64,000 bases of DNA, taken from the IMG/VR virus record IMGVR_UViG_3300024255_000001; one strand, 5' to 3'. This stretch comes from a virus. A model generated the notes under the pieces. That model worked only from the letters and a program-made list of their open reading frames with translations. It ran no database searches and was not told the DNA's origin. The translations under genes were made by a program, and so were the position numbers. This document shows positions 9,660 to 59,380 of the stretch, piece after piece (the first letter of the stretch is position 1; the number at the start of each line of letters is the position of its first letter).

Positions 9660-9662
9660 AGC

Positions 9663-10379
9663 TTACTTGTTCTTTTGTTGATAGTTAATATGTGTCGAAC
9701 CTAATTTTGCAACTGTTGCCGGAGTAGGAGGCATTGGAGGACCAGATGGCCCAACACCAGTTGGATGGATATGTGCATTGTAATCATCTAATAGAGCCTG
9801 TAACCAATCTTGTAGAGATTGACCTCTTACTGCAGGTTCTGTTTCATCTGCTCCAGACTCACCTGTATTAGATACAAATATATCTCCACAATCTAAAAAG
9901 ACTTTAGCATCTGTAGAAATCTTAATAAAACCCTCTTCATCAATTTGAAGCATAGGTCTTTCTTTTGCGCCCCCACCTCTAGTAATGACCAAGCCATCTT
10001 CTGGTGAGTGGTAAATTCTTAAGTTACGTTCTGCATCGTAAACCAGGGATATAACATCTTGTGGTGCGTCAGATGACTCTAGGATGTCTCCCTTTAAGTC
10101 TTCGTTTTGATCTACTTGAAACCAGTATTCTGGGTGATAAATGTTACCGTTATCAAATCTAACTGCAACAACATCTCCAACTCTAGGAACTGCATGCGCA
10201 CCAACCTGATCCCTATTCATAGGAGTTGCCCATGGAATAGCGTCATCTGTTAATTTATCAAATTTACCGAATACTTTTACTCTAACCCTACCTTGAAGAA
10301 GTGGGTCTTCATTAATAACCACTTCACCTAACCAATGAGTCTCTCGTAAATTATCTCTGTAAAGTTCATTATTATTCAT
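9663..10379 (-). CDS. Baseplate central spike, gp5/VgrG-like (OB fold plus His tip)
   Basis: WLGEVVINEDPLLQGRVRVKVFG...IPWA...VPRVGDVVAVRFDNGNIYHPEY; C-terminal HIHPTGVGPSGPP. Confidence 0.85.
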   Translation of the reverse strand: MNNNELYRDNLRETHWLGEVVINEDPLLQGRVRVKVFGKFDKLTDDAIPWATPMNRDQVGAHAVPRVGDVVAVRFDNGNIYHPEYWFQVDQNEDLKGDILESSDAPQDVISLVYDAERNLRIYHSPEDGLVITRGGGAKERPMLQIDEEGFIKISTDAKVFLDCGDIFVSNTGESGADETEPAVRGQSLQDWLQALLDDYNAHIHPTGVGPSGPPMPPTPATVAKLGSTHINYQQKNK

Positions 10380-11793
10380 GTACGTTTTCGTTTATTGGTC
10401 CATCAGTATCTGGTGGTGTATCACCGTGAATATTATCTGGGCCTAATGAAGCTTCTGGTTGAAGTAGTCCATCATTAAGCTCATCATAAATTTTACCTAA
10501 TTTTATATTATCTGGAGTAGAATCAGATCCAGCTAACCCTACATTACCTAAACCACCAATACTAGGACCTCCATTACCATCGTTATTTTTACCTATTAGA
10601 TTTCCTACTAGGTTGCCGACTGCATTTAAACTACCTGTTTTTAAAGCGGTTGATATATCATTTATTGTACCACCTAACCCGTGAACATTACCTAAAAGTA
10701 GAGACCCTGTTAAATCGTCAGTTGCTTTATCTAAAAGGTTTTTAACAATACCAGGTTGATTTGGGTTAGCGAACGAATTAGCAATACTATTTGCTTGAGC
10801 AGTAGCTGCGTCTTTTGCGTTTTGTAAGACAGATTCAACTTTGCCAATTGTTCTACCTCTAATAGCATCTAAATATTTCTGACCAGTGGATTGACCAGCA
10901 CCATTATCTACTCTACCGACTTTTTGAGCCTCTTCTATTCTTTTATTAATAGGTTTATCTGAATCTTCTTTTTCGTTAAACAAGTTCGAACCTAATTTTT
11001 GATCTATTTGTCTACATGTACCCCAATTAATTTTAATACTCGGTCTTGCAGCTTCTGGGTTTTTAGTTAATTCACCAAAAAACGACGCTAAAGAATCTTT
11101 ATCAAATTCACAATGAGTAAATCTTAATCTAACAAAAGGAGTTACATCAGCTGACGTAAAGTCTTTATTAACATAATTTTCATGTAAATCAGTTATTGTG
11201 CCACCAGCAGAATTACTTGAATTACCAAAAATAGAATCTTCATTATCAGTACTACCTAAGTTTCTAGAATTAGTATCTTTTTGAAATACTCTAATCTCAG
11301 ATACAATTATATCCATCGAAAATTCTCTTAAGTTTCTAGGTACCACCTCTACATATCTTTCAAAATCAAAACAGGCTCTTTTATATAAGTCCATTAAACC
11401 AATTGCTGTAAACTCCATGTTCTCTTCTAGACATGTAATTTCTAGTTCTGGTTTTTCAGCACCTCTCCATGGCTCTGTCATATCACCATAAGTCATAGCA
11501 GCATCTAAGCCTTTTAAACCCTGCCAAAACCAAGGCATTTCTTGATTAACCTTTCTCAATACTCTATTAAAGTTCTTTAAATTAGCAGCAAGTTTATTTC
11601 CAATATCATCTCTAATTACATCTTGTAGATAACGCTCTGCCGTACCATCGAGTAGGGGCGAGTGCCCAACATCACGATGGTCGTCAAAATGGAATAATAT
11701 AAGAAAACTCAAAAACGTAGGATCTTCGTCAATCAAACGTATTCGAGAGCCCTTTTTAAACTCATTCCTTGTTCTAAAATCTAAATCTGCCAT
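10372..11793 (-). CDS. Putative tail tube initiator/baseplate protein
   Basis: Position between hub and spike; tube-like N-terminal half, low-complexity C-terminus. Confidence 0.5.
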   Translation of the reverse strand: MADLDFRTRNEFKKGSRIRLIDEDPTFLSFLILFHFDDHRDVGHSPLLDGTAERYLQDVIRDDIGNKLAANLKNFNRVLRKVNQEMPWFWQGLKGLDAAMTYGDMTEPWRGAEKPELEITCLEENMEFTAIGLMDLYKRACFDFERYVEVVPRNLREFSMDIIVSEIRVFQKDTNSRNLGSTDNEDSIFGNSSNSAGGTITDLHENYVNKDFTSADVTPFVRLRFTHCEFDKDSLASFFGELTKNPEAARPSIKINWGTCRQIDQKLGSNLFNEKEDSDKPINKRIEEAQKVGRVDNGAGQSTGQKYLDAIRGRTIGKVESVLQNAKDAATAQANSIANSFANPNQPGIVKNLLDKATDDLTGSLLLGNVHGLGGTINDISTALKTGSLNAVGNLVGNLIGKNNDGNGGPSIGGLGNVGLAGSDSTPDNIKLGKIYDELNDGLLQPEASLGPDNIHGDTPPDTDGPINENVHE

Positions 11794-41789: not shown

Positions 41790-42029
41790 TTAAGTCATCC
41801 AACCGTTAGATTCTTCCCAGTCTTTATGGGAAGATAGCATTGAATACGCCTCAAAAGAAAGTGTTACTTCAACATAACCCCCTGTTATAGATTGGGGGCA
41901 TTTAGACTCACTTAGGTACCAGTTGGGTGCATCTTTAATCCTACCATTTAAAAAATCAAATAGTGGATCTATGTGCATGTGGTGTACCCATATATTGATA
42001 TGCATACATGTCATATTTGCTTTACCCAT
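41790..42029 (-). CDS. Hypothetical protein
   Basis: 79-aa ORF overlapping upstream stop. Confidence 0.55.
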   Translation of the reverse strand: MGKANMTCMHINIWVHHMHIDPLFDFLNGRIKDAPNWYLSESKCPQSITGGYVEVTLSFEAYSMLSSHKDWEESNGWMT

Positions 42030-42951
42030 TTTCTACGCTAAATCTTTTTTTGTCAAAGTTAATTGTACTTTTAATATCTTTCTTTTGGTACATATCTATC
42101 TGTTCGATTTCAGATGATTGTAATTTTTTACCATAATGCTCTTGATAGACTTTTTTATAGATAAGTGCCATAACACCATAGAGAGGAGCAAACTCTGAAG
42201 ACATTTCCACTACCCATGGTTTCCCATCTGTATCTACCATCAGGTCTATTGAGTATATGTCTAGACCTTCATGTGCCTCATTCATTTCTTGAAATACTTC
42301 ATTCCATTCGTTTGGCATTTTACTTAGATCTTTTAACACATACTTAAAGAATAGCTTGTCTTCTTTTTTCTTTGTCATCTCTTTGGTCTCCTTGTTACCA
42401 TGTACTCTTTGTACCCACATAACAGGCTCACCTCTCCACATCATTATTCTATGTTCTTCATCGATGTCTATCTTCTCGCTGAAAACTTCAAAATCTTTTA
42501 AATCCTCTTTCTTAGCATCTTCCAAAGTATCAAATTTTACAATACCCATTCCTGAGTATCTGTTATCTGGTTTTGCTATAATAGGGAATTTTAATTGATC
42601 TAGATCTTTAGCATCTGTTACAGTCTTAGGCACAAATTTACTATCTTTATGGGTAGCGTGCCATTTAACTTTAGATGCAATTTCCATTTTCTTTTCTTCA
42701 GGGTTATAGATTAAGTCTTTAGGAGTACCCGCATCTAATAATTTTTTAGTGTGGATATTACAAAAGTTAATCACTGGTAACTGAGACTTAAACGGCTCAT
42801 CACCCTTTGTAAACAGAGTCATAAAGTTTTTAGTATATGTGTCTTTATCTGTAACATACTTGAAATCTGTAATCTCAGTAGAAACACACATAATAACCTT
42901 ATGTAAATCTCCATCTCTTTCGTTAAGAAATGTTTGAAAATCTTTAATCAT
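42022..42951 (-). CDS. ATP-grasp (RimK-like) ligase with head-targeting-like leader
   Basis: FPIIAKPDNRYSGMGI, EKIDIDEEHRI, YSIDLM...PWVVEMSS; MIKDFQTFLNE leader; late promoter 42955-42963. Confidence 0.7.
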   Translation of the reverse strand: MIKDFQTFLNERDGDLHKVIMCVSTEITDFKYVTDKDTYTKNFMTLFTKGDEPFKSQLPVINFCNIHTKKLLDAGTPKDLIYNPEEKKMEIASKVKWHATHKDSKFVPKTVTDAKDLDQLKFPIIAKPDNRYSGMGIVKFDTLEDAKKEDLKDFEVFSEKIDIDEEHRIMMWRGEPVMWVQRVHGNKETKEMTKKKEDKLFFKYVLKDLSKMPNEWNEVFQEMNEAHEGLDIYSIDLMVDTDGKPWVVEMSSEFAPLYGVMALIYKKVYQEHYGKKLQSSEIEQIDMYQKKDIKSTINFDKKRFSVENG

Positions 42952-43017: not shown

Positions 43018-43446
43018 TTAAGATGGGAATACTTCAATCGTTCTTTCTTCTCTAACTAAATCTGCCCACTTGCCTTCGTATCTTGTACCTTTGACAATGT
43101 GGTTATCAACCCAGTGATAGTTACCACCTCTTGGTTTACCCATTAGTAGACCATGGTATTTGAAGCCATGTTTATTTAGCCAAGTTTCTGTAATCTCTCT
43201 TACTTCTTCAGTTCTTGAAGTAAAGAAAGTAATTACATGGCCTTCGTCAAACCATTTATTTAAAGTTTCTTTTGCACCTGCATAAGGTAAGACTATTGCC
43301 ATTCTCTCTGGCTCTTCATTTGGTACATCATCTGTAACCGTGCCGTCAATGTCAATTAGATAGTTCTTACACCCTGCGTTTAAAACAGGAGAGACTAGGT
43401 GTCCGTCATCTCCTACTGAGGAGTTTAAATTTAATTCTCTTTTCAT
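43018..43446 (-). CDS. HAD-superfamily phosphatase (capsule-biosynthesis phosphatase-like); start revised to MKRELN
   Basis: LIDIDGTV, FTSR, LLMGKP, WVDN. Confidence 0.75.
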   Translation of the reverse strand: MKRELNLNSSVGDDGHLVSPVLNAGCKNYLIDIDGTVTDDVPNEEPERMAIVLPYAGAKETLNKWFDEGHVITFFTSRTEEVREITETWLNKHGFKYHGLLMGKPRGGNYHWVDNHIVKGTRYEGKWADLVREERTIEVFPS

Positions 43447-43462
43447 ATTAATTATTTGTATA

Positions 43463-44890
43463 TTAAGGTTCTTCGTGGTTTCTAATAAATGATACAATAA
43501 TATATCTCTTACCACTTGTAATTGGCCTCGCGCCATGTCTATGTGTAATCATTCCAGGGTGGAGTACTGCTGTACCTATTCGATCTGGATTGGATAATTT
43601 TTGATACTGGGGGAACCAAGTTCCACCACCACTAAATTCATCATTTAATTTAATAACCATCGTTAGATGGCTTCTATCATGATGTAGAGATAGGTGTGAT
43701 TGTCTATTCGTTGTATACCTAGCCATGAAGTTTTCATTTGAGAATGCGTCCCACTGTTTACCTTCTAGGCTCCATTGGTGAATTGCAAGAGGTCTAACTA
43801 CTTCATGTAATACTTTATTGTAAATTTCATCTAAACCAATATCTTGTAATAAGACATCATTAGTTGGATAATGTTCGTGTCTGTCAATAGTCCACTTATC
43901 TTTAGCCTCTGCTAGAGCAATTGCTTCTCTACAGAATTTAGGAGTGAATAACGGGAATTCATATACGTTATCTCCTCTATCTGAAACCATTAAGTCATAC
44001 TCTCCCTTTGATACTGATAGATTAATATACTTCTCTTTCCATTCATCCCAATTAGACGTATCTAATATTTCAAAATATTCTGAGGCACTAGTATCAAATT
44101 CTGGTCTTACATATTCTGTTTGAGTTTGTTCAGGTTCCTGGTTAATTATTTCAGGTTGGTTTGGACTACCCACTTCTGGTTCTATTGTAGAACCTGCAAG
44201 TTTACCACCTCTATCCTGTACTATAAAATTTTGATCGCGTGTTGCTAATATAGTTAATGATTTTGGAAATAGTTCTTGAATATCATGCCTTCTATGTGGA
44301 TAACCTAATGCACTTAAATACTCATCTACAGGAATCACGTTTTCTTTTAATCCACCTGATAATAATAGTTTTGCTACATTAGGGTTTTTAATAATATATG
44401 CATGTGCATTATACCAATGTCTAGGATAAAGCCAAGTTTCATTAATAACCTCTTCTTCAACTTCTTTTTCAATTATATCTCTACCTAATAAGGCAACATC
44501 CCAATTAGTATCTACTGGAGGCTCTGCTAACATTGACATTGAATTACCTTCATTAAAGAAATCTTCTTCTAATATCAGTATTGGGCCTAGTCCATCGAAT
44601 ACTGCAGCTTCCCATACTTTTCTATGTGAAATTGCACACCCAACCTCTCCTGGTAAAACAGACCTTCTCCACCAATCATTCCAAGAATAAGGTGACTCAG
44701 GGCCCACATCCCATTTATCATAAACGGTATAACCCTCTTTTATATCACCTTCTCTACCATCAAATGCAGAAATAATTTCATACGGAGTATTTTCATAAAA
44801 ACCGCATGATTGTAACTTTTCTTCTATTGTTTGCTGAAGACTATCTCTATTTGTATCTAAAGCTATAACATAAATTTTATTAATTCTCAT
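43463..44890 (-). CDS. Fusion of GT25 (collagen galactosyltransferase-like) and PLOD-like lysyl hydroxylase domain
   Basis: N-terminal AFDG, GEVGCAISH..VW, ILEED, VIPVDEYL; C-terminal WKEKYI, VYEFPLF, YPTND, NFMARY, HHDRS, LHPGMITHRH, RYIIVSF. Confidence 0.85.
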   Translation of the reverse strand: MRINKIYVIALDTNRDSLQQTIEEKLQSCGFYENTPYEIISAFDGREGDIKEGYTVYDKWDVGPESPYSWNDWWRRSVLPGEVGCAISHRKVWEAAVFDGLGPILILEEDFFNEGNSMSMLAEPPVDTNWDVALLGRDIIEKEVEEEVINETWLYPRHWYNAHAYIIKNPNVAKLLLSGGLKENVIPVDEYLSALGYPHRRHDIQELFPKSLTILATRDQNFIVQDRGGKLAGSTIEPEVGSPNQPEIINQEPEQTQTEYVRPEFDTSASEYFEILDTSNWDEWKEKYINLSVSKGEYDLMVSDRGDNVYEFPLFTPKFCREAIALAEAKDKWTIDRHEHYPTNDVLLQDIGLDEIYNKVLHEVVRPLAIHQWSLEGKQWDAFSNENFMARYTTNRQSHLSLHHDRSHLTMVIKLNDEFSGGGTWFPQYQKLSNPDRIGTAVLHPGMITHRHGARPITSGKRYIIVSFIRNHEEP

Positions 44891-44911
44891 TATTAGTTAT
44901 GAATTTTTATA

Positions 44912-44938
44912 TTATACTAGAGTAACGCGAAAAGTTTC
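44912..44938 (-). promoter_or_regulatory. Putative middle promoter of the GT25-LH gene
   Basis: GAAAC-N16-GTATAA. Confidence 0.6.
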
Positions 44939-46485
44939 TCGCCCTCTAATAAGCTATTATTATTTTTTTTAATATAGTATTGATCTACCTCTGTTAAGAT
45001 ACCCATAATATTTTTATAGTCTTCAGAGGCTAACATTTCTTCTTTCGAATTAAAGTGTTTAATACCATCAAGATCAAAATATTTTAAATCACCATTTTCG
45101 TCTATCGCACAATTATATACATTTACTATATCAGTTAAAAGTATATTATGTTCTAGGGCTGCTTTAAAATGTTTTAAAATCTGTGGGTAAACTCCAATAT
45201 CTACTGGCCACTTCCAGTCTTCCCATTCCGGATATATGTTGTATTTTGAACAAAGAACTTGACTTGCTTCATATTTTTCTTGGACTACAAATAACACACC
45301 CTTATAGATACCGACATCATATAATTTAGGTATTATTCCTAATTCATATAATATTGAGTTTGTCTTTTTAATAACCAATGATAGTCTCATAGATGAAACG
45401 GGTGATGAAGCTCCAAAAGAAAATGGGTCTAGTGATGCTTTACATGGATATATAAATTTTAGTAGATAATCATCAAAGTAAAAAACTTTATGATAATATC
45501 TAAAATCACCATCATTACCCTTAAGTAAGGGTTCATCAAAAAGCCCACGGTATCTGTCTTGAATTAGTTTTTTAGTATCAATATTATCTACATTGATCTT
45601 TATATCACATTCATTTACCTCAGCAATTACCTTTCCTGTTTCAGCCCACCAGTCTTTATATTCTAGCTTAAATTTAGCTCTCTCAGGTTTGTGATATTTG
45701 TTTATTTGAACATCGTTTAAATAGCAATCAATACCTAACCCTACATCTTGCATGTATTTCTTTTGAATCTTATTACCAAGCTTAGCATCTATAGTATCAA
45801 CCCAAGTACCTACTTGTCCAATCCTAAAATCATGAGTTGTATATTTAATATCTGTATTAGCCCCGTTAGGTAGTCTTACATCAACAGGTTTACTAATAGT
45901 ATGTCCTAAGAATTTTGCTATCTTATTTACAGAAGAATCATACTCATTTATTATCTCTTCAAATGAAATGATTTCCATGTCAAGATCAAGAAGTTCTCTG
46001 CTCATATAAACAGAAAACCAGTTCTTGTAATAATCTATTAATAGATCTAAAAGGTTATCATGTTTTTTATCTGAAGACTTATATCCATTAAAATCAAAGT
46101 TTTCATAAAAGTCAGAGAAAGAAGTATACTTATTTTTAATATGAGGCCTATGGTAACATGAGGTCATTATATCTCTAACATCTCTATAGATTAAGATTAT
46201 TTTTGACTCAGAAAATATTTTTTGTAGTTTTTCTTCATCACCTAAATCAATGGAATGATTGTGTTTGTAAAAACTTCTATAGTTATGAGAATGTGTCCAT
46301 GTTACTTTATTACCTTCATTCATCCACCCATATAAACCGTTAAGTGCTGGCCATTCAAACTTAGTATAATCAAGATAATTTTTATCGATACTTTCATATC
46401 CAAAATTATTTACTATCAGATCTACTAATAAGTGAGTACCTCCTCTTCTTGCAGAAACTACTATAACATTCTTTTTAGAATCCAT
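44917..46485 (-). CDS. Sulfotransferase-like domain fused to a kinase-like domain
   Basis: SARRGGTHLL (5'-PSB), YRDVRDIMTS (3'-PB), SFEE, FRIGQVGTW; C-terminal PKLYD, VQEKY, TDIVNVYN, FDLDG. Confidence 0.65.
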   Translation of the reverse strand: MDSKKNVIVVSARRGGTHLLVDLIVNNFGYESIDKNYLDYTKFEWPALNGLYGWMNEGNKVTWTHSHNYRSFYKHNHSIDLGDEEKLQKIFSESKIILIYRDVRDIMTSCYHRPHIKNKYTSFSDFYENFDFNGYKSSDKKHDNLLDLLIDYYKNWFSVYMSRELLDLDMEIISFEEIINEYDSSVNKIAKFLGHTISKPVDVRLPNGANTDIKYTTHDFRIGQVGTWVDTIDAKLGNKIQKKYMQDVGLGIDCYLNDVQINKYHKPERAKFKLEYKDWWAETGKVIAEVNECDIKINVDNIDTKKLIQDRYRGLFDEPLLKGNDGDFRYYHKVFYFDDYLLKFIYPCKASLDPFSFGASSPVSSMRLSLVIKKTNSILYELGIIPKLYDVGIYKGVLFVVQEKYEASQVLCSKYNIYPEWEDWKWPVDIGVYPQILKHFKAALEHNILLTDIVNVYNCAIDENGDLKYFDLDGIKHFNSKEEMLASEDYKNIMGILTEVDQYYIKKNNNSLLEGEKLFALL

Positions 46486-48511
46486 CTATACCATCGGTTC
46501 TAGGGTTATCTTCTGTGATGCCGTTTCTTTCGAGCATCTTTTTATAGTCATCATTTATATTTCTGTCAAGAGTATTATATTGAGTATGCCAGTGGTATTT
46601 TAACCATTGGAACCCACCATAATCATATTTCCACGTATCATAAAATGGTTTATATTGTTCATAGTGTGCTCTTAAAACTTCTTCACTAAAGAATGTGTGG
46701 AAATTACCCACATTTTTATGAATAGACCATTTATATTTTCTAGAATCATCTATACCAAGGGGTTCTAACTCTAAAAACTCAGAAACTTCACCTAAAAATT
46801 TACCTTGGTTCCAAAGTACATCTTCATATCTTAATACAATACAGTTATCTCCAAATTGTTTTGTATATGATTCTATTAATTGTATTTGTTTATCTGCAAT
46901 TTCATTTATGAATTCTGCAGCTCTAATATCATCTGGATTATTTATGTAATCTTTTGAATACATGTGAAGCCCATTATCAAAATTTAAAATATTAATAGCA
47001 ACTTCTCTAGGGTCAGATATAACTAAAAATACTTTAGTTTTATTTACATCAATAAACTCATCAATAACTTTATCTTCCAATGGAACATGGCTCTTAGACC
47101 ATTTCGTTAAGTCAACTGTTTCTGGAAAGTTTTCTCTAATTAACTCTTTAGATAATTCTGAACCAACCATTCTCCAGCCTACTAAAAGATATTCATTATT
47201 TTCATTAGGTTTCCTAAGCCATGTATCAGGTCCATTTCGCCATACACCAGGTCTTTCTTCTTTCCAATCTCCCTGCAAACCCATTGAATTTGTTACAGGC
47301 CTCACATTCTGTTCTAATAACTTATGTTTTATTTTAAAATACTGCTCTGCATTATTTGTTATATGTGAATGCCACGCTTCTGCTGCTGCGTCCCACGTAA
47401 AATACCCTGCGGAATGTTCAGCATTACGTAATGCTTTATTTTTTAATTCTGTATCTATATCTAATAAAATATTAGCGGCAAGATCAAACATCGTATCATA
47501 ATCACTAAATGGCATAATTACCCCATCTTTAACAACTGATGGTAAAGCCGCTTTATCTGAAACAATACACAAGACTCCATTCATTTGCATTTCTAATGCA
47601 GTTATACAAAATGTTTCTTCATAATCAGAAAGATATAACCAATATGTAGCTTTTTGAGCAGCAGAATATAATTCTTGTTTAGAGACTGAGCCCATGTCGG
47701 TGACTCCCTCGTCCTTTAAATCATTTAATCTATCTACTACACCATCGATATTATACCAACTTTCCTGTCCAGTTTCATTTGGATCAGAATATTTTGGATA
47801 GTAAACATCTAAGGTTGCATTAGGCATTACCTTTTTAATTTTATACCAATTATCTAATAAAGCTACTAAACCTCTATCTACAGCAGATGCCCATATAAAT
47901 TTATTTGGATCTTTAACAGTAGGTGCATTGTAGAAATCTTCTTTATTAATTCCATTAGGAATGGACATAAGTCCACCTCGCCATGTTGAATTATCTAGTC
48001 TAGCTGCATTTGCAACTTGGCCAGTAATTAAATTAGGATATTTATTTTGAATTATATTTTCTATAATATGGTTAGATGCCCAATCTGATGGAGTTGTAAT
48101 ACATTGTATTTCGGTTAAATGTTTAAACTCTTCAAGACCTTCTATTGGTCTACCTTTATACCATGGTTCATATTCAGTGTTGTGCATCCAAATCCATTTA
48201 TATTTTGGATCTAGATCAGCATCTTCTAAGTAGTTTAAAAAGTTTATATAGTTTACACCTATTACTATATCAAAGTAATCACTAGGTCTATGTAAAAAAT
48301 TAAATTCAAATTCACCTAGGGCATGCCAAGTAACTCCATCAATCTTTTCACCATGTGAACTTTCAACCTCTCCGGCTACATGTACTTCATGGCCAAAATT
48401 TGATAATCGTTTACTTATCTCTATTACTGCTGTTTCTGTTCCGCCTAAACCGGTAGTTGTATTACCGTTAAATGTTTCAAATCGGTAACCTGTCCAAAAT
48501 AGTATTCTCAT
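46475..48511 (-). CDS. GT4 (GT-B) glycosyltransferase fused to a sulfotransferase-like domain; start revised to MRILFW
   Basis: GLGGTET, WMHN, IPNGI, SAVDRGL, EETFCITALE; C-terminal SKSH, SDPREV, LRYEDV. Confidence 0.7.
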   Translation of the reverse strand: MRILFWTGYRFETFNGNTTTGLGGTETAVIEISKRLSNFGHEVHVAGEVESSHGEKIDGVTWHALGEFEFNFLHRPSDYFDIVIGVNYINFLNYLEDADLDPKYKWIWMHNTEYEPWYKGRPIEGLEEFKHLTEIQCITTPSDWASNHIIENIIQNKYPNLITGQVANAARLDNSTWRGGLMSIPNGINKEDFYNAPTVKDPNKFIWASAVDRGLVALLDNWYKIKKVMPNATLDVYYPKYSDPNETGQESWYNIDGVVDRLNDLKDEGVTDMGSVSKQELYSAAQKATYWLYLSDYEETFCITALEMQMNGVLCIVSDKAALPSVVKDGVIMPFSDYDTMFDLAANILLDIDTELKNKALRNAEHSAGYFTWDAAAEAWHSHITNNAEQYFKIKHKLLEQNVRPVTNSMGLQGDWKEERPGVWRNGPDTWLRKPNENNEYLLVGWRMVGSELSKELIRENFPETVDLTKWSKSHVPLEDKVIDEFIDVNKTKVFLVISDPREVAINILNFDNGLHMYSKDYINNPDDIRAAEFINEIADKQIQLIESYTKQFGDNCIVLRYEDVLWNQGKFLGEVSEFLELEPLGIDDSRKYKWSIHKNVGNFHTFFSEEVLRAHYEQYKPFYDTWKYDYGGFQWLKYHWHTQYNTLDRNINDDYKKMLERNGITEDNPRTDGIDGF

Positions 48512-48512
48512 A

Positions 48513-49136
48513 TTATTTGTAATGTGAGCCACCAACCCATAAAACTAAAGATCTTCTAGTACCCTTGGTGACAGGAGATACTCTATGCATCATATAACTT
48601 GGAAAAAGAACTGCGACTCCTCTACCTCTCGGGCAGGTTGTTGCTCCCCAATCATTTGAAGTATCACCACCGGAAGTAATTTGTAATTCACCACCTTCAT
48701 ATTCGTCTGAATCTGATAATTGAATTGTAATAGAAACTTTTCTTCTAGAGGGTAATTCACCAGGACCTATATCTTGGTGCCAGTCGTAGTGCCCATTTTC
48801 ATGAGCATAATATTCTGTGTATTGAATTTGTTCTGGAGCAGAGTGTAGATCGAATTGCCATAGATTATTATTTGCTTCTTCAGCAAAACCAATTAATCTT
48901 TTATACAGCCAATCCCAATCTCTATTCTGTGGAACCCATTTTACCATTGAGGAACGAACTCCTTCAGGATCGTTACCCTCAATAGCTTCGCCATCTGAGC
49001 CTATTGTAGTTGCTCGTTCTACTGGAAGTTCACTAGCTAATTTAATAATTTTACTAACCTCTTCCTTAGTTAAACCTTCTTTAAACCAATACCATTGTTG
49101 TGGATCGTTTGTTGGTTGATTAAAACTGTAAGTCAT
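48513..49136 (-). CDS. 2OG-Fe(II) oxygenase (prolyl 4-hydroxylase/PKHD-type)
   Basis: QYTEY, YDWHQD, RKVSITIQLS, YEGGEL, FPSYMMHRVSPVTKGTRRSLVLW. Confidence 0.85.
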   Translation of the reverse strand: MTYSFNQPTNDPQQWYWFKEGLTKEEVSKIIKLASELPVERATTIGSDGEAIEGNDPEGVRSSMVKWVPQNRDWDWLYKRLIGFAEEANNNLWQFDLHSAPEQIQYTEYYAHENGHYDWHQDIGPGELPSRRKVSITIQLSDSDEYEGGELQITSGGDTSNDWGATTCPRGRGVAVLFPSYMMHRVSPVTKGTRRSLVLWVGGSHYK

Positions 49137-49153
49137 GAAATAATGTTTAATAG

Positions 49154-49180
49154 TTATACAATAAAAAGTAAAAAAGTTTA
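49154..49180 (-). promoter_or_regulatory. Putative middle promoter of the hydroxylase/GT operon
   Basis: TAAAC-N16-GTATAA; late-like GATAAATAA at 49185-49193 just upstream. Confidence 0.55.
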
Positions 49181-49200
49181 CAGTTTATTTATCAACCTTA

Positions 49201-50121
49201 TTAAACATCAGTTAAAGTAGCTGTAGCAGTTAATACAGGTACGCCCTTATTATTACTATCAATATTATTTAATGTCATGATAATAGTTTCATCTTCCTCC
49301 TTCTCATTATCTAAGACGTAGTTCAATGTAACTTGAGCTTGTCCGTTTGTAAATACAAATTTACCAAAAGCCCAACCCATCGTTGATGGTTCATAATCAG
49401 CTAAACCTACGTAACCCTCTACTTCAGCTTGAGCGCGGACCTCTAAAATATCTTGCCAAGAGTTAGCAACTAACCCTGCGCTTTCATCTGCCGTTACATC
49501 CCATATATTAGCAGTACCAAGAAGGTAGAACGAAACTATAGTTCCATCAGGTACGTTATCTGCAGTTAGAGTCCATGTTGAGCTAGTACCTTCAGGTGAT
49601 ATTGCAGGAGTAACTGACAACTGATAATTAGTTGGAAGTACCTCTGATACTGTAGTAGTAGCCACCGGTGTTGGATAAGTCTCTGCTGGCATGCCTAATT
49701 GTGCTTTAACAGCTTCTGCTCTAGCATTTAATTCATTAAGTGCATCTAAACATAAAACTGAAAGAGCTTCATAGTCTATCCAATAATAATCCTCATCTTC
49801 ATCTAGCCAGTCCATAACCCTTACAAGACTTGGTTCTACTGCAGCTAATTCTTGTGCAATCAAACCAATTCTTTTAGGTTGTACTCCACCAAATTCTTCA
49901 GGTCTATCCCATCCAAATTGCTGACCTAATTCGTTCATATAGAAATAATAGGTTTCTAAAGTTCTAATTTTTTCAGTAGCAGAACCAACTGGTAAATTAA
50001 TCTCTTTAGATAAAAGGTATTGTGCCGCTGGTTTAATATCAACCGCGTACGCCCATCCACCAGAACCGTCGTTCTTTAAACTAAATCCAGGATCGTAATT
50101 CCAATTCTCTATACCTGCCAT
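49201..50121 (-). CDS. Stand-alone degenerate S74-type intramolecular chaperone domain plus Calx-beta/Ig-like domain
   Basis: IGLIAQELAAVEPSLV...IDYEALSVLCLDALNEL without SDxRLK; DNEKEEDETIIMTL. Confidence 0.65.
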   Translation of the reverse strand: MAGIENWNYDPGFSLKNDGSGGWAYAVDIKPAAQYLLSKEINLPVGSATEKIRTLETYYFYMNELGQQFGWDRPEEFGGVQPKRIGLIAQELAAVEPSLVRVMDWLDEDEDYYWIDYEALSVLCLDALNELNARAEAVKAQLGMPAETYPTPVATTTVSEVLPTNYQLSVTPAISPEGTSSTWTLTADNVPDGTIVSFYLLGTANIWDVTADESAGLVANSWQDILEVRAQAEVEGYVGLADYEPSTMGWAFGKFVFTNGQAQVTLNYVLDNEKEEDETIIMTLNNIDSNNKGVPVLTATATLTDV

Positions 50122-50150
50122 TTTATATTTATATTTTTATTTTATATTTA

Positions 50151-52157
50151 TTATCTATAGCCCATGTAACACATGCCGTAATCAGGACCGTCAACACTAG
50201 CACAACCCGAAACATATTGAATTGAACATGCACAAATGTATGTACTGGAGTAGCTATATCCAGATGTGGTTTGCCTATTTCCTGCACAGTCTGTATAGTA
50301 AACAGTACTATAACATCCGGATCTGTTTATCATGTAATCGTAACATTGACATACAGATCCAGCAGGGCCTTGAGTACCTGAAGCACCAGTATCACCTTTT
50401 GGACCTTTAGGTCCAGTTGAACCAACTCCACCTGATGCTCCTGTCGGTCCTTGTGAGCCTGCAGCACCTTTTGGACCAGTACCACCTTGTGCACCAGTTG
50501 CACCTTTTGGTCCGGTAGGGCCAGTTGGACCTTGTGGACCTGCAGCACCAGTATCACCTGTAGCACCTTTTGGTCCAGTAGCGCCAGGAAGTCCACCGGG
50601 ACCTTGTGCACCTTGATTACCAATTGCACCTTGTGGACCAGTAGGGCCTTGAGCACCAGTTGCGCCTTTAGCACCTTGGCCACCTTGTGGACCTTGATTA
50701 CCGCCGCCACCAGAAGGGCCTGCTACACCTGTTGCTCCAGTAGCGCCTTGGTTTCCAATAGCACCTGTATCTCCACCTGGGCTTGGACCAACATAACCTT
50801 TAGCACCTTGGCCACCAATTGGACTATTACCTATTATACCTTTTTGACCAATATCTCCACCAGCACCTTTAGAACCTTGATCTCCGGTTGCACCTACGCC
50901 TCCTGTATCTCCACCACCGCCTGTAGCACCTTGAGCTCCACCATCACCATTAGCACCGGTTAAACCTGTAAGACCGGTTTTGCCTTGATCTCCGCCGCCA
51001 CCTACAGCACCTTGACCACCTAAATCACCACCAGCACCTTTAGAACCCTGGTCACCAATAATACCCTGGTCACCACCGCCACCTACAGCACCTTGATCAC
51101 CACCGCCACCAACTGGACTATTACCAACGCCACCTTTGGGGCCTTGATCTCCGGTTGCACCAGTTGCACCAATAGCACCTTGAGCACCTGTATCACCACC
51201 GGTACCAGAAGGACCTGATGGACCTGTTGCTCCAATTGGAGCAGTTCCCTGTGGACCTATTATACCTTTTTGACCAATATCTCCACCAGCACCTTTAGAA
51301 CCAGTATTACCAGTATCACCTATAGCACCAGTTGCACCGACAGCACCTTGAGCACCAATTGGACTATCACCAACAACACCAATTGCCCCAGTATTACCTA
51401 TATCTCCGCCGCCACCAACAGCACCAACATTACCTAAATCACCACCGCCGCCGATAGCACCTGTTCCGCCTTGATCTCCACCAGGGCTAGTACCTTGAGC
51501 TCCGCCGCCACCTTGAGTACCGATTGCACCTTGATCACCTTGGCCACCAAGAGCACCTTTTGGACCTTGATCTCCGCCGCCACCTTGAGTACCGATTGCA
51601 CCAAGATCACCTCCACCGCCGATAGCACCTGTTCCGCCTTGATCACCAGTACCACCTGGAGAACCGATTGCACCAGTATCACCTGTTATGCCTTTTGGAG
51701 AATCACCACCAGCACCTTTAGCACCAGTATCACCAGTTGCACCTTGTGGGCCTTGATCACCAACAACACCTGCAATACCGTCACCACCGCCAGCACCTTT
51801 AGCACCAGTATCTCCGCCACCGCCGACATCACCAGTTGGACCAGTAGTACCTATATCACCTTTTGAAACAGGAGCAGTATGGTTATCACCAGCACCACCT
51901 AAATCACCTGGAGCACCTTGGTCACCACCATCACCGCCTCCACCAAAAGCACCTTTATTACCTTTGTTTCCTGGAGCACCTTGTGGACCTTTGACGCCTT
52001 GGTCACCACCGCCACCACCAGCACCTTTAGCACCTTTTGCACCTGTAACACCTTTTTCACCTGGCTCTCCTAATAAATAAGGAAAGTTTTTAGGTTCAAA
52101 ATTAGAATCAGTCAGTACTTGGTTACCTGCGACAAGTATGTTTCTGTAATCAGCCAT
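50151..52157 (-). CDS. Collagen-like fibre B (Asp/Gly-rich, interrupted) with Cys-rich C-terminal domain
   Basis: About 570 aa of Gly-X-Y; 8 Cys in the last 67 aa. Confidence 0.9.
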
Positions 52158-52175
52158 TTATTATTTTATGTTTAT

Positions 52176-54302
52176 TTAAGAACCTAATTGACTCTCAATA
52201 TCTGTTAATTTCGTATCTAATTCCTTAATAGCCTCAATTAAAATAGCAGATAGTTTAGAGTAATCAACTCCTCTATAACCTTCTTCTGGATCTAATCCTG
52301 GAATTTGGAATACTAATTCTGGGAATTGAGCTTGTACCTCTTCGGCAAGCACACCCATTCTAGGAGCAGTACCCATTCCTAATGATTGTGCGAATTCATT
52401 TGGATTCCAAATTACACCTCTAATTGCATTAATTTTAGTTAAGGTATTTCCAATTGGACCTTCAACATTCTTTAATCTAGAATCTGAAGTTCCTGGAGGG
52501 CCTTGTGGACCTTGTGCACCTTTTTGACCTTTTTGACCTGTTGGACCGGTTGGACCTTTAGCACCAGTACCACCAGTACCACCAGTATTACCTTTTAAAC
52601 CTGCTGGACCTGTTGGACCAGTATTACCTTTCGGGCCTGTTGGACCTGTACCACCGCCACCACCTTGTGGACCTTGTGCACCAGTATTACCTTTTACACC
52701 TTGTGGACCAGTTGGACCTTTCGGGCCAGTTGGACCCATTGGACCAGTATTACCTTTCGGGCCTGTTACACCTGTTGCACCAGTTGCGCCTTTAGTACCT
52801 TGTGGACCAGTAGGGCCTTGACTACCTGTAGGACCTTTAAGACCTGTTGGACCTGAAGGACCAGTAGGACCTTGTGGGCCAGTATTACCTTTTGGACCAG
52901 TTGCTCCTTTGACTCCAGTTGCTCCTTGGACACCTCGAGGTCCCGTTGGACCTTGTGGACCAGTAGGACCTTGAAGACCAGTACCACCCTGTGGACCTTT
53001 CAGGCCTTGTGGACCTGTTGGACCTTTAGTACCTTGTGGACCAGTTGGACCCTTTGGACCTCCAGGACCAGTTGCACCTTTTTGACCTTTTTGACCTTGA
53101 GGACCTGTTCCACCACCTGCACCAGTTGCACCTTTAATACCTTGTGGACCTGTACCACCCTGAGGACCTTTAAGACCTTGTGGGCCAGTATTACCTTTTG
53201 GACCTTGTGGACCTTTAAGACCTTGTGGACCAGTTGGACCTTTCAGGCCTTGTGGACCAGTATCACCTTTCGGGCCTGTTGGACCGGTTGGACCTTTTGG
53301 ACCTTGTGGACCTTGACCACCTTGATTACCCTTAGGACCTTTAAGACCTTGTGGACCTGAAGGACCGGTTGGACCTTGTGGACCAGCAATACCCTGTGGA
53401 CCTTGTAGGCCTTGACCACCCTGAGGACCTTTAGCTCCTTGTGGACCAGTACCACCTTGTGGGCCTTTAGCTCCTTGTGGACCAGTTGGACCAGTTATAC
53501 CTTTAAGACCTTGTGGACCTTTAGCTCCTTGTGGACCAGTATTACCTTTTGGCCCTTTTGGACCTTGTGGACCTTGACCACCTTGAGGACCTTTAGCTCC
53601 TTGTGGACCAGTTGGACCAGTTTGACCTTTAACTCCTTGAGGACCCTGTGGACCTTTTAATCCACTAGGACCTTGTGGACCTTGTGGGCCTTTAGCTCCT
53701 TGAAGACCTTGTGAACCTGTTGAACCTTTTAATCCACTAGGACCTTGTGAACCTTGTGGACCTTTTGCACCCTGACCCCCTTGAGGACCTTGTGGGCCTT
53801 TAACTCCTTGAGGACCTTGTGGGCCTTTAGCTCCTTGAAGACCTTGTGGACCGGTTGGACCTTTCGGGCCTTGTGCACCAGTTGCACCTTTAATACCTTG
53901 TGCACCAGTTTGACCTTTAGTTCCAGGACCACCCTGCGGTCCCTTTTCACCTTGTGCACCTCCTGGGCCTTTAGCTCCTTGTGGGCCTTTAACACCAATT
54001 TCACCTTTTTGGCCTTTTGAACCAGCTAAACCTGGGGCACCCTTTGCACCGCCAACACCTTTAGCTCCTTGTCCACCTTTTTGACCTTTTTCACCTGCAT
54101 CACCGCCACCACCTTGTGGACCTTTGGGACCTTGACCTCCAACTTCACCTTTTTGACCCTTTGCTCCACCAGGACCTTGTTGTCCAGTGTCGCCTGTTGG
54201 ACCTTTAGCTCCTTTCATGGCACTATATTGTGTAGGGTCGAAGTTTCCAGCTGTTAGAATAATAGATCCTTGTACTGTAGCTCCTGCTTTTAAATTTGCC
54301 AT
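52176..54302 (-). CDS. Collagen-like fibre A (Lys/Pro/Gln/Thr-rich) with C-terminal S74 autocleaving chaperone
   Basis: About 575 aa of Gly-X-Y; SDSRLK...GVLAEEV...FPELV...VDYSKL...EAIKEL. Confidence 0.9.
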
Positions 54303-54324
54303 TTCTTAGTTTTTCTTATTTTAT

Positions 54325-54333
54325 TTATATATC
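54325..54333 (-). promoter_or_regulatory. Putative late promoter of the collagen genes
   Basis: Exact GATATATAA. Confidence 0.65.
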
Positions 54334-56518: not shown

Positions 56519-59380
56519 TTAAAATTCGAATCTTATTGTACTACCATCTGATGTTATTTCACCCCCGCTATTAAAGACGTATTTTGTAGTTACAATATGT
56601 CCGGTTGAAACAGTAAGAATACTTGTTGAATCATTAAATGTCATATTACTTTCTCCAGTAAACGGTGTGCCTGAATTACCTGTCATAGTAACAACTCGGT
56701 TATTCACGTTACCTCCTGAAATAGAAGTACTTGCTGGAGTACCTGATGTACCTGATGAACCAGAAGTTCCAGATGAACCAGAAGTTCCAGATGAACCAGA
56801 TGTTCCAGATGAACCTGAGCTACCTGAAGAACCAGATGAACCGCTTGTTCCAGAAGAACCAGATGAACCGCTTGTTCCAGATGAACCAGATGAACCTGAC
56901 GTTCCAGATGAACCAGATGAACCACTTGTTCCAGATGAACCACTTGAACCAGATGAACCTGAAGTTCCAGAAGAACCAGATGAACCTGAAGTTCCAGAAG
57001 AACCTGAGCTACCTGAAGTACCGTTTAAATCATGTACTGGATTCCAGTTACTACCATCCCATTGTAAAACTTGTCCATTAGCAGTATAACCTAATTGTCC
57101 AACAAATTCACCATTACCTAGGTCTTCAACATCAGTTCCTGATTTAGCACCTGTATAACCAGATGAACCAGAAGAACCAGATGAACCAGAAGAACCAGAT
57201 GAACCTGAAGTTCCAGATGAACCGCTTGTTCCAGATGAACCAGATGAACCGCTTGTTCCAGAAGAACCACTTGAACCAGATGAACCTGAAGTTCCAGAAG
57301 AACCAGATGAACCTGAAGTTCCAGAAGAACCAGATGAACCTGAAGTTCCAGAAGAACCAGATGAACCTGAAGTTCCAGAAGAACCACTTGAACCAGATGA
57401 ACCTGAAGTTCCAGAAGAACCAGATGAACCGCTTGTTCCAGAAGAACCAGATGAACCGCTTGTTCCAGAAGAACCAGATGAGCCGCTTGTTCCAGAAGCA
57501 CCAGTATCACCTTTATCACCAGTTGCAACTAATGAAATTACAATATCATCTCCGTTTGTAAATGGAGCTGGGCTTGATGAACCTACATTTGATAAATCAG
57601 TTAATGTCCACCATGCACCATTATCTGTTAAATTACCGATTGCAAATAATAAGTATTCGTCGGTATTGAATTTTTTAGATATTCTAATGTGTGCCTTAAT
57701 ACCAGATGTTACTGCATCTAAAGCTGTAAAGAATGACTCCACACTACCATTATCATCGTCAGTTTGTGATATGTAAATATTACCTGCACTTGTTTGTGTT
57801 GTAAAGTTATCTAATCTTAGTCTACCATCAGCAGGTTGAGATGCGCCTACAGCAGATGCAAATGTATAATCAAATGATGCACCACCAAAGTTACCGTCTT
57901 GTCCTGATGTACCTGAAGAACCAGATGTACCTGAAGAACCTGAAGAACCGCTTGTTCCAGATGAACCAGATGAGCCGCTTGTTCCAGATGAACCTGATGA
58001 ACCACTTGTTCCAGATGAACCTGAAGTTCCAGATGAACCTGAAGAACCGCTTGTTCCAGATGAACCTGAAGTTCCAGATGAACCCGAAGAACCGCTTGTT
58101 CCAGATGAACCTGAAGAACCTGAAGTTCCAGAAGAACCACTTGTTCCAGATGAACCTGAAGAACCGCTTGTTCCAGATGAACCTGAAGAACCTGAAGTTC
58201 CAGAAGAACCACTTGAACCAGAAGTACCATTTAAGTCACCTACTGGATTCCATGTTACTCCATCCCATTCATATATGATACCATCTGCCGTATAACCTAA
58301 TTGGCCGACAAACTCACCACTACCTAATCCTTCAATATTTTCTGCTGATTTAGCACCTGAGTAACCAGATGAACCTGAAGAACCTGAAGTTCCAGAAGAA
58401 CCACTTGAACCAGATGAACCTGAAGTTCCAGAAGAACCAGATGAACCGCTTGTTCCAGAAGAACCAGATGAACCGCTTGTTCCAGAAGAACCGCTTGAAC
58501 CTGAAGAACCTGAAGTTCCAGAAGAACCTGAAGAACCACTTGTTCCAGATGAACCTGAAGAACCGCTTGTTCCAGATGAACCTGAAGAACCTGAAGTTCC
58601 TGAAGAACCGCTTGAACCACTTGAACCTGAAGTTCCTGAAGAACCACTTGAACCAGATGATCCGTTTAAATCGTTTAATGTAACCCATGTTGCTCCATCC
58701 CATTGGTGTACCAGACCGTCAGCAGTATAACCTAATTGACCTACAAACTCACCATCACCTAATCCTGCAACTTCTGTTGCTGATTTAGCACCTGAGTAAC
58801 CAGATGAACCTGAGCTACCAGATGAGCCTGCTGAACCTGAAGTTCCTGAAGAGCCTGAAGTTCCTGAAGAGCCAGAAGTTCCTGAGCTACCTGAAGAGCC
58901 AGAAGTTCCTGAGCTACCTGAAGAGCCAGAAGTACCATCAATACCCGATGAACCGCTTGAGCCTGAAGTCCCATCAATACCTGATGAACCACTTGAGCCT
59001 GAAGTCCCATCAATACCTGATGAACCACTTGAGCCTGAAGTCCCATCAATACCTGATGAACCACTTGAACCTGAAGTCCCATCAATACCTGATGAACCGC
59101 TTGAACCTGATGTTCCACTTGAACCTGATGTTCCTGAAGAGCCTGATGAACCAGAAGTTCCTGAGCTACCTGAAGAGCCAGAAGTACCATCAATACCTGA
59201 TGAACCACTTGAGCCTGAGGTTCCTGATGAACCACTTGAGCCTGAAGTACCAGATGAACCATCTAATGGTGCAGCTTGGTTTTCCCATTTGCCCGTAACG
59301 TTGTTGTATGCTAAATAATCACCGTTTTGAGGATTATTTAACAAAAATTCTTGTATTTGTTTTAATCTTAGTCTAGACAT
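56519..59380 (-). CDS. (Gly-Ser-Ser/Gly-Thr-Ser)n fibre with three repeated knob domains
   Basis: Long GSSGTS runs; GEFVGQLGYTA(D/N)G...WDG..W knob x3; late promoter 59411-59419. Confidence 0.85.
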   Translation of the reverse strand: MSRLRLKQIQEFLLNNPQNGDYLAYNNVTGKWENQAAPLDGSSGTSGSSGSSGTSGSSGSSGIDGTSGSSGSSGTSGSSGSSGTSGSSGTSGSSGSSGIDGTSGSSGSSGIDGTSGSSGSSGIDGTSGSSGSSGIDGTSGSSGSSGIDGTSGSSGSSGTSGSSGSSGTSGSSGTSGSSGTSGSAGSSGSSGSSGYSGAKSATEVAGLGDGEFVGQLGYTADGLVHQWDGATWVTLNDLNGSSGSSGSSGTSGSSGSSGSSGTSGSSGSSGTSGSSGSSGTSGSSGSSGTSGSSGSSGSSGTSGSSGSSGTSGSSGSSGTSGSSGSSGSSGTSGSSGSSGYSGAKSAENIEGLGSGEFVGQLGYTADGIIYEWDGVTWNPVGDLNGTSGSSGSSGTSGSSGSSGTSGSSGSSGTSGSSGTSGSSGSSGTSGSSGSSGTSGSSGTSGSSGSSGTSGSSGTSGSSGSSGTSGSSGSSGTSGSSGSSGTSGSSGTSGQDGNFGGASFDYTFASAVGASQPADGRLRLDNFTTQTSAGNIYISQTDDDNGSVESFFTALDAVTSGIKAHIRISKKFNTDEYLLFAIGNLTDNGAWWTLTDLSNVGSSSPAPFTNGDDIVISLVATGDKGDTGASGTSGSSGSSGTSGSSGSSGTSGSSGSSGTSGSSGSSGSSGTSGSSGSSGTSGSSGSSGTSGSSGSSGTSGSSGSSGSSGTSGSSGSSGTSGSSGTSGSSGSSGSSGSSGSSGYTGAKSGTDVEDLGNGEFVGQLGYTANGQVLQWDGSNWNPVHDLNGTSGSSGSSGTSGSSGSSGTSGSSGSSGSSGTSGSSGSSGTSGSSGSSGTSGSSGSSGTSGSSGSSGSSGSSGTSGSSGTSGSSGTSGSSGTSGTPASTSISGGNVNNRVVTMTGNSGTPFTGESNMTFNDSTSILTVSTGHIVTTKYVFNSGGEITSDGSTIRFEF

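Follow-up and report, generated by a model that had tools for sequence, protein, structure and literature searches.

A predicted pathway for modification of collagen-like tail fibres encoded by a large marine T4-like phage

Known collagen-modifying systems and the phage locus

In animals, lysine (Lys) residues of collagen are converted to hydroxylysine (Hyl), then to galactosyl-Hyl (Gal-Hyl) and finally to glucosyl-galactosyl-Hyl (Glc-Gal-Hyl), and the PLOD lysyl hydroxylases that start this pathway act on Lys in the Y position of the Gly-X-Y repeat (X-Lys-Gly). To our knowledge, glycosylation of collagen Hyl counts as a trait of animals, Mimivirus being its single viral exception. Here we analysed a 64,000-nt stretch of viral DNA, IMG/VR record IMGVR_UViG_3300024255_000001 (hereafter the window), in which positions 43,018-54,333 hold two genes for collagen-like fibres together with genes for oxygenases, glycosyltransferases (GT), sulfotransferases and a kinase-like domain. 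We propose, with a probability of roughly 60%, that this region encodes a system for the post-translational modification of the phage's own collagen-like tail fibres, parallel to the animal pathway.

The closest described viral system is that of Mimivirus, which modifies collagen with L230, a lysyl hydroxylase (LH) and Hyl glucosyltransferase whose LH domain has been solved (PDB 6ax6), and with R699 (PMC9546862). Both viruses combine collagen-like proteins with a bifunctional LH/GT enzyme, and the L230 LH domain is the closest solved relative of the one in the window. Mimivirus, however, infects an amoeba and the phage a bacterium; L230 carries a PLOD-type GT, whereas the 475-aa phage protein carries a GT25 of the COLGALT type; and the phage adds a GT4, an oxygenase of the prolyl 4-hydroxylase (P4H) type and sulfotransferase/kinase proteins, the putative substrate being a tail fibre with an S74 chaperone. 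With the animal enzymes PLOD1-3/LH3 and COLGALT1 (PDB 6fxk, 8zgc, 9evj) the phage shares the same two catalytic families and the X-Lys-Gly motif. Animal LH and COLGALT1 form a complex (both chains are present in 8zgc), whereas the phage has them in one chain. The phage setting also differs in being a bacterial cytoplasm with no endoplasmic reticulum and no context of lysyl-oxidase cross-linking, in a second sugar that would probably be added by GT4 and not by the GT-A domain of LH3, and in having proline (Pro) at X and not at Y.

The cultured Roseobacter phage CRP-6 (MK613348; locus L001, 6128-9740) offers a close phage parallel. It encodes a collagen-like tail fibre, gp60, with 99 triplets and Lys only at Y (26 at Y, 0 at X), then a tail assembly chaperone and then gp58, annotated as hypothetical, in which Pfam recognizes GT25, PLOD-GT and LH domains in a single chain. 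In contrast to the window, the three domains of gp58 fit into 589 aa, the genome is 45 kb, and OXY2 (the P4H-type oxygenase), GT4, sulfotransferase and kinase are absent; the paper describing CRP-6 makes no mention of collagen or hydroxylase. In bacteria, Iyer et al. 2010 (PMC2938197) predicted hydroxylation by 2-oxoglutarate (2OG) oxygenases followed by sulfation for collagen-like and tail-collar proteins. Those operons resemble ours as a computational prediction in which collagen-like proteins are hydroxylated and the hydroxyl is then sulfated, and differ in that they are bacterial, involve other oxygenase families and have no GT25, while in the phage a GT and a kinase fold are joined to the sulfotransferases, which points to sugar acceptors. 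Reviews describe bacterial and phage collagens as mostly lacking such modification (PMC8968730). Our literature search returned no publication on a phage lysyl hydroxylase, on Hyl in phages or on tail-fibre sulfation, the published work being on animals and giant viruses.

The source is a large marine T4-like phage; a homologue of the baseplate wedge elsewhere in the window identifies it as a T4-like myovirus. With megablast, the enzyme block matched none of 50,697 phage records; the closest record (G001), a fragment of 26 kb, does not contain the GT25::LH fusion. Every gene of the collagen/enzyme region lies on the minus strand, closely packed. Transcription would run through a 953-aa protein with G-[ST]-S repeats, a 715-aa protein, fibre A, fibre B and a 306-aa S74-like protein, and continue into OXY2 (207 aa), GT4::ST2 (686 aa), ST1::kinase-fold (522 aa), GT25::LH (475 aa), a HAD phosphatase and an ATP-grasp protein. 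A preliminary description of this DNA had placed two collagen fibres upstream of a set of such enzymes, and Pfam, PDB and fold searches confirmed this inventory. Searches by hidden Markov model, and by structure for the two domains of the 522-aa protein, bore out the identities it had assigned, with ST2 falling below the Pfam cut-off and the kinase being recognized at the fold level.

Collagen-like fibres and the hydroxylase-glycosyltransferase cassette

The fibres and the hydroxylase and glycosyltransferase domains are as follows.

52176..54302, minus strand: fibre A, 708 aa, Gly-X-Y repeats and a C-terminal Peptidase_S74 intramolecular chaperone
50151..52157, minus strand: fibre B, 668 aa, 184 triplets in 9 runs and a Cys-rich C-terminus
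48513..49136, minus strand: OXY2, 207 aa, a P4Hc/PKHD (PiuC/YbiX-like) 2OG-Fe(II) dioxygenase
47336..48511, minus strand: GT4 domain (GT-B, retaining family), part of the 686-aa fusion
44171..44890, minus strand: GT25 (COLGALT-like) domain, N-terminal part of the 475-aa fusion, by Pfam and COLGALT1 match
43463..44083, minus strand: PLOD-type lysyl hydroxylase domain, C-terminal part of the 475-aa fusion, by L230/LH3 match

Fibres A and B both match the collagen repeat family PF01391 (E 9e-72 and 2e-24, respectively), and a triple helix is predicted. Fibre A contains a single unbroken run of 192 Gly-X-Y triplets (residues 31-606) in which Lys occupies the Y position 56 times (29%) and the X position never, while Pro is found 88 times at X and 3 times at Y. 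Lys in fibre B is placed similarly (22 at Y, 1 at X); its runs are interrupted at regular places by the pattern G-x-[SA]-P-x-G, which adds two residues and on three occasions follows exactly 13 triplets, and its C-terminal domain of about 65 residues is rich in Tyr and contains 10 Cys. Chance cannot account for Gly-X-Y runs of this length. The counts agree with the earlier claims of two long fibres and of Lys at Y in about every third triplet of fibre A, and we propose fibre A as the main substrate of the lysine-modifying enzymes.

Both halves of the 475-aa protein matched the families expected from the preliminary description, which had called it a GT25-lysyl hydroxylase fusion. The LH domain (query residues 280-469) matched Mimivirus L230 (6ax6) with a phmmer E of 2e-28 and human LH3 with an E of 6e-24, the latter over about 200 residues. 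H403/D405 and H452, which form the iron-binding HxD...H triad, and the 2OG-binding R462 are invariant in 33 homologues and align with the motifs of L230 and LH3. The GT25 domain scored 45 bits against PF01755 (cut-off 24) and matched human COLGALT1 (E 5e-8) over 127 residues (73-199) that span the region of the EDD motif. These results place the LH domain among the PLOD/L230-type lysyl hydroxylases, with a predicted activity on X-Lys-Gly, and its fusion to GT25 suggests that the latter could transfer galactose from UDP-Gal to Hyl. The fusion family comprises at least 518 proteins, mainly from marine metagenomes, several of them on contigs of 190-260 kb.

We assessed the linkage of this fusion to collagen genes across its relatives, of which an alignment query reached 39 loci, compared to 2 with a single-protein query. 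On the same strand and no more than 10 kb upstream, a collagen-like open reading frame (ORF) was present in 19 of the 25 IMG/VR loci with a GT25::LH fusion; four of the six remaining loci are truncated by the end of the contig, and two have collagens elsewhere on the record. In the comparison set, composed of 26 sulfotransferase-kinase loci of similar phages, the collagen ORF was seen in none (Fisher p = 4e-9), so that the co-occurrence of LH-GT25 with collagen genes, proposed earlier as a check, is borne out. The usual order is collagen(s), in some cases an S74-like protein, OXY2, GT4 and GT25-LH, and by this gene order the four form a cassette conserved over many uncultured phage lineages. 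The linkage of GT25 and LH to a collagen recurs in two distant lineages, represented by phage CRP-6 and record G052. A full cassette with two collagens, OXY2, GT4, GT25-LH, HAD and ATP-grasp was also found on a 24-kb contig binned in a Flavobacteriaceae metagenome-assembled genome (MAG) (L214, PAUJ01000013.1), which is either a hint of the host or a binning artefact; the earlier idea that the fibres mimic the sulfated glycans foraged by Flavobacteria is a speculative one.

The position of Lys follows the same pattern. Pooled over the cassette-linked collagens (6296 triplets), Lys was found 1075 times at Y and 37 times at X, and one record with GT4, GT25 and LH (G052) encodes a collagen of 352 triplets, 193 of which have Lys at Y. 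Among 80 arbitrary viral collagen loci, the majority had no Lys at all. Strong LH matches were present in 2 of 9 records with at least 17% Lys at Y and in 0 of 62 others, among the 71 arbitrary collagen records that could be searched (hypergeometric 72/4970 = 0.014). The association of LH with Lys at Y is real, not absolute. Together, the synteny and the placement of Lys support the earlier claim of hydroxylysine-glycosylated fibres as far as the genes are concerned, the chemistry being predicted, and we consider hydroxylation and glycosylation of fibre Lys likely.

OXY2 contains a 2OG-FeII_Oxy_3 domain (PF13640, 56 bits, cut-off 27), and H120, D122, H184 and R194 (HxD...H...R) are invariant among 20 orthologues, in agreement with the 2OG-Fe(II) hydroxylase noted at this position. 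Its profile matches PiuC at 1e-8 and prolyl 4-hydroxylase at 2e-4; a literature search on the function of PiuC returned nothing. Profile-profile comparison with the LH fusion gave a weak relation with a probability of 28%, which rules out that OXY2 is a recent LH paralogue. OXY2 accompanies the cassette in separate lineages, and in one 66-kb viral contig (G003; loci L025, L041, L046 and L050), which encodes collagen-like ORFs of 2707, 1268 and 658 aa, its orthologue adjoins the collagens and not LH, the GT25-LH and GT4 genes being more than 20 kb away. OXY2 is thus a candidate hydroxylase of Pro, or of a second residue type, in the fibres. Since Pro in fibre A is mostly at X, and animal collagen prolyl 4-hydroxylase uses Y, classical stabilisation by 4-hydroxyproline is unlikely.

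The GT4 domain is encoded in the 686-aa GT4::ST2 ORF (46475-48535), whose real start is probably the ATG near 48508-48511. Scanned alone, its N-terminal 400 aa passed the PF00534 threshold marginally (26.7 bits, cut-off 26.4); the domain also matched phrog_2170 (E 3.6e-10 over 356 residues) and, weakly, the NCBIfam models for BshA, MshA and a GlcNAc transferase of lipopolysaccharide (LPS). In a relative (L052), GT4 is a separate gene of 403 aa. We regard it as a candidate transferase for a second sugar.

Several points weigh against the proposed fibre modification, those on the core being given here and those on the sulfotransferases in the next section. The GT25 domain of the window reads E-E-D where the family consensus and COLGALT1 have E-D-D, which appears to be a conservative substitution. 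LH is absent from several nearly complete viral records whose collagens are rich in Lys, and the only collagens of some cassette loci (the L007 group and L013) are Lys-poor and of the Ser/Thr type. Stand-alone LH-like proteins of 255 aa, about 50% identical to the phage LH domain, are encoded in Thiotrichaceae chromosomes and in one Aquificaceae MAG (L215-L224; for example L220 9827-10594, on the Thiothrix fructosivorans chromosome), and their neighbours are transporters and cytochromes, in the Thiotrichaceae housekeeping genes, while a collagen-like gene is lacking for 10 kb around them, which shows that this type of LH domain is not bound to collagen everywhere. Hyl, sugar, sulfate and phosphate on phage fibres are themselves predictions from sequence.

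The bacterial LH-like proteins raise the alternative that the two oxygenases act on targets other than collagen, such as host or phage proteins (for instance translation factors) or nucleic acid, and that their linkage to collagen genes is incidental. Both oxygenases match phrog_61, a very common phage family of 2OG oxygenases, and the nearest solved relatives of OXY2, PiuC and YbiX, are named just 'PKHD-type hydroxylase' in PDB and NCBIfam. However, the synteny statistics, the confinement of Lys to Y, the position of the OXY2 orthologue in G003 and an LH domain far closer to collagen LHs than to any nucleic-acid oxygenase all argue against this explanation, and we judge it very improbable.

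The sulfotransferase and kinase-like proteins

Between GT4 and GT25-LH, the window encodes three further domains.

46475..47335, minus strand: ST2 domain, divergent and sulfotransferase-like, fused to GT4
45706..46485, minus strand: ST1, a SULT-type sulfotransferase, residues 1-260 of the 522-aa protein
44917..45588, minus strand: protein-kinase-like domain, RIO/Bud32/WbdD-like, residues 300-522 of the 522-aa protein

ST1 scored 43 bits against PF00685 (cut-off 22). Its AlphaFold2 (AF2) model had a mean predicted local distance difference test (pLDDT) score of 86.8 and matched cytosolic SULTs by Foldseek (E ~1e-6). R13, R14, G16, T17, H65, R101, D102 and S109 are invariant, and the loop that binds 3'-phosphoadenosine 5'-phosphosulfate (PAPS), the 3'-phosphate motif and the conserved His are intact. 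Since a Foldseek search with the model of the whole 522-aa protein gave sulfotransferases exclusively, we folded the C-terminal 220 residues alone. This model (pLDDT 88.7) matched RIOK2 (E 5e-5) and WbdD (E 1.2e-4), and VIA-align superposed it on Rio2 with a Z of 10.8 and a root-mean-square deviation of 5.0 over 175 aligned residues. K343, D452, N458, D471, D473 and G474 are invariant and include a D...N loop and a DxDG motif. By sequence, Pfam gave PIP49_C at E 0.011 and the best PDB profile match had an E of 0.88, nothing meaningful. The sulfotransferase-kinase fusion reported earlier therefore stands, for ST1 by Pfam, motifs and fold and for the kinase at the level of fold. WbdD of E. coli O9a, a kinase and methyltransferase that caps the O-antigen (PDB 4azt), likewise joins a small kinase-like domain to a second group-transfer domain acting on a glycan. 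In the phage, however, the partner is a sulfotransferase, and the resemblance is one of fold only, with 12-15% identity.

ST2 retains the GSE loop and the KxH, DPR and YED-like motifs in 17 relatives, and the Arg and Ser positions usual for 3'-phosphate binding are replaced. The C-terminal 286 residues of the fusion belong to a very small family, for which 1.8 billion proteins yielded 29 representatives, mostly stand-alone and of about 250 aa. ST2 is fused to two different glycosyltransferases, GT4 in the window and GT25 elsewhere, which argues for a sugar acceptor. With a sugar acceptor, and with the only local GT25 fused to LH, sulfation or phosphorylation of a Hyl glycan would be a reasonable, albeit weaker, inference. 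We hold the possibility that the sulfotransferase/kinase proteins act on the same fibre glycan as LH-GT25 to be a tentative one, which falls somewhat short of even odds.

The distribution of these genes, their scores and the rest of the window furnish the second set of contrary points. ST2 scored 20.3 bits against PF00685, under the 22-bit cut-off, so that of the GT4-sulfotransferase fusion described previously the GT4 part passes its Pfam threshold, marginally, and the sulfotransferase part keeps its motifs with a score below the limit. ST2 and ST1::kinase are a separate, tightly conserved two-gene module; in the 29 other loci where we found it (26 in IMG/VR and 3 on further contigs), neither collagen nor LH was present within 10 kb. 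Nine of the 29 (L200 at 8449-11581, L197, L201, L205, L177, L190, L191, L194 and L210) have a GT25 without LH directly upstream of ST2 or fused to it, the fusion being present in L200 (520 aa), L197 and L205. The form with GT25 sits downstream of S74-type tail fibres that are not collagens, and the module in general often does so (for example in L176 and L200). Within a collagen cassette, the module was seen only in the window, in L051 (98% identical) and in L052/L054 (73%; GT4 and ST2 as separate genes), while L002 and L003, with 69-74% identity, pass directly from GT4 to GT25-LH. Its restriction to the nearest lineage of the window and its absence from the next relatives indicate a recent insertion, and its presence may reflect juxtaposition in a hypervariable fibre region and not a shared substrate. 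In addition, we found no candidate for PAPS synthesis among the ORFs of the window, using a crude test over 64 kb for the APS-kinase P-loop, the ATP-sulfurylase HxxH and PP-loop motifs.

These observations fit an alternative in which the hydroxylase/GT core acts on the collagens and the module is an independent neighbour with another target. Such a target could be a fibre protein that is not a collagen, the Ser/Thr-rich G-S-S fibre at 56519-59380 or a glycan set by a GT25-type enzyme on a different acceptor. The self-contained occurrence of the pair, its frequent place just behind non-collagen fibres and the LH-less GT25 of its own all fit such independence. On the other hand, the module of the window is wedged between GT4 and GT25-LH, ST2 is fused to GT4, the stop and start codons overlap along OXY2, GT4::ST2 and ST1::kinase, and the GT4::ST2 fusion is kept in three sequence clusters. 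Moreover, the usual partner of the module elsewhere is a GT25, and the only GT25 here is the one joined to LH. We consider independence of the module unlikely. The earlier suggestion that the fibres are sulfated or phosphorylated is accordingly plausible in view of the position of the genes and the GT::ST fusions, although the module usually occurs without collagen or LH.

The kinase fold and the glycosyltransferases also bear on another alternative, namely that in the infected cell the GTs, sulfotransferases and kinase alter the LPS or capsule of the host, for instance as a barrier to superinfection. Such a role has been proposed for the glycosyltransferases of the host-recognition cluster in pelagimyophages, and those in the fibre regions of marine T4-like phages have been read as modifiers of the O-chain (PMC7029224), the GT25 and GT4 families include enzymes of LPS and lipooligosaccharide (by Pfam name and NCBIfam matches), and the resemblance of the kinase fold to WbdD, an O-antigen-capping kinase, points in the same direction. 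However, GT25 is covalently joined to a homologue of peptidyl-lysine hydroxylases, and this pair tracks collagens with Lys at Y across lineages. The cassette also follows directly after the fibre genes on the same strand, and of the neighbours that were scanned none showed a membrane-anchor, flippase or undecaprenyl-linked function. Remodelling of the host surface is consequently quite improbable.

Proposed pathway, flanking genes and implications

The proposed modification of the phage's own fibres starts from what the sequences show, namely the domain identities, the intact catalytic residues, the collagen synteny and the restriction of Lys to Y. The PLOD-type domain would hydroxylate Y-position Lys in Gly-X-Lys of unfolded chains, for which fibre A offers 56 sites and fibre B 22. 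The COLGALT-like GT25 domain of the same fusion would then place a hexose on the new hydroxyl, and GT4, of a retaining family, could extend this sugar, replacing the PLOD-GT domain that phages such as CRP-6 carry in-chain. OXY2 would hydroxylate another fibre residue, most likely the abundant X-position Pro. In this lineage only, the imported module (ST2 on GT4, and ST1::kinase) probably adds sulfate and phosphate to the sugar, with PAPS and ATP from the host. We infer every chemical step, the donor sugars and the acceptor of the sulfotransferases and kinase, as well as the benefit, which may be stability, protease resistance or receptor binding. The fullest form of this proposal, in which virion fibres carry a proteoglycan-like decoration of Hyl-linked disaccharides sulfated and phosphorylated by the GT::ST and ST::kinase pair, is possible, and we regard it as somewhat unlikely.

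The genes at the two edges of the region, and those between fibres and enzymes, are listed below.

56519..59380, minus strand: 953-aa protein, the third collagen-like one, whose 201 G-[ST]-S triplets form 5 blocks, upstream of the region studied
49201..50121, minus strand: 306-aa protein with an S74-chaperone-like N-terminal part
43018..43446, minus strand: HAD phosphatase, 142 aa from M31, within the ORF 43018-43536
42022-42951, minus strand: ATP-grasp protein, weakly matching R2K clade 3 and the tubulin-tyrosine-ligase family

The third collagen-like protein contains 4 Lys, and its blocks are parted by short non-collagen linkers. Collagens of this Ser/Thr type also adjoin cassettes in L007, L018 and L026, and it is a possible substrate for O-glycosylation or phosphorylation on Ser/Thr. 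The 715-aa protein upstream of fibre A gave no match in family searches. Relatives keep the 306-aa protein in its place between fibres and enzymes, and it probably forms the fibre tip or serves in assembly.

The true start of the HAD phosphatase is probably M31 at 43446, which gives 142 aa as in its relatives (PF24694, 32.6 bits, cut-off 27.7). Although the preliminary description counted it among the collagen-maturation enzymes, we rejected it as a part of the system because it does not co-vary with the collagen/LH cassette: HAD and ATP-grasp retain 85-91% identity in loci whose GT25-LH has fallen to about 50-55%, and HAD is not beside the cassette in L009, L017, L025, L027-L032, CRP-6 and G052. 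A role for it in fibre maturation is highly doubtful. From this high identity, and from their absence beside the cassette in other lineages, we read HAD and ATP-grasp as conserved neighbours that border a variable fibre region. The ATP-grasp gene is strongly conserved beside HAD in relatives. The R2K clade 3 and tubulin-tyrosine-ligase families are peptide or protein ligases, and the ATP-grasp protein may be a protein-modifying ligase.

The preliminary description assigned a putative middle promoter to the enzyme genes and a putative late promoter to the collagens, by which the enzymes would precede their substrates. Of the T4-type late motif TATAAATA, the window has 6 copies, fewer than the roughly 11 expected by chance; two of the three copies on the gene strand are directly before fibre A (54322-54329, minus strand) and before the 306-aa ORF (50126-50133, minus strand). 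Scans of the window for sigma-70 promoters and terminators returned chance levels.

If the proposed pathway is true, a compact, soluble, single-chain LH and GT25 enzyme that is common in marine phages and adjoins its likely substrate would show that this chemistry works in the bacterial cytoplasm. It would bear on the origin of the PLOD and COLGALT families, and with it recombinant collagen could be produced in hydroxylated and glycosylated form in E. coli by simple means. The reading of glycosyltransferases in phage host-recognition regions, now taken as modifiers of host LPS (PMC7029224), would change as well. The core claim is directly testable in the cultured phage CRP-6, and the sulfotransferase/kinase module is a testable lead on the role of phage sulfotransferases. 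Should the proteoglycan-like decoration prove true, viruses of bacteria would have their first known sulfated glycoprotein and their first known Hyl glycan, and the widespread phage module of a small sulfotransferase and a sulfotransferase-kinase would gain its first function.

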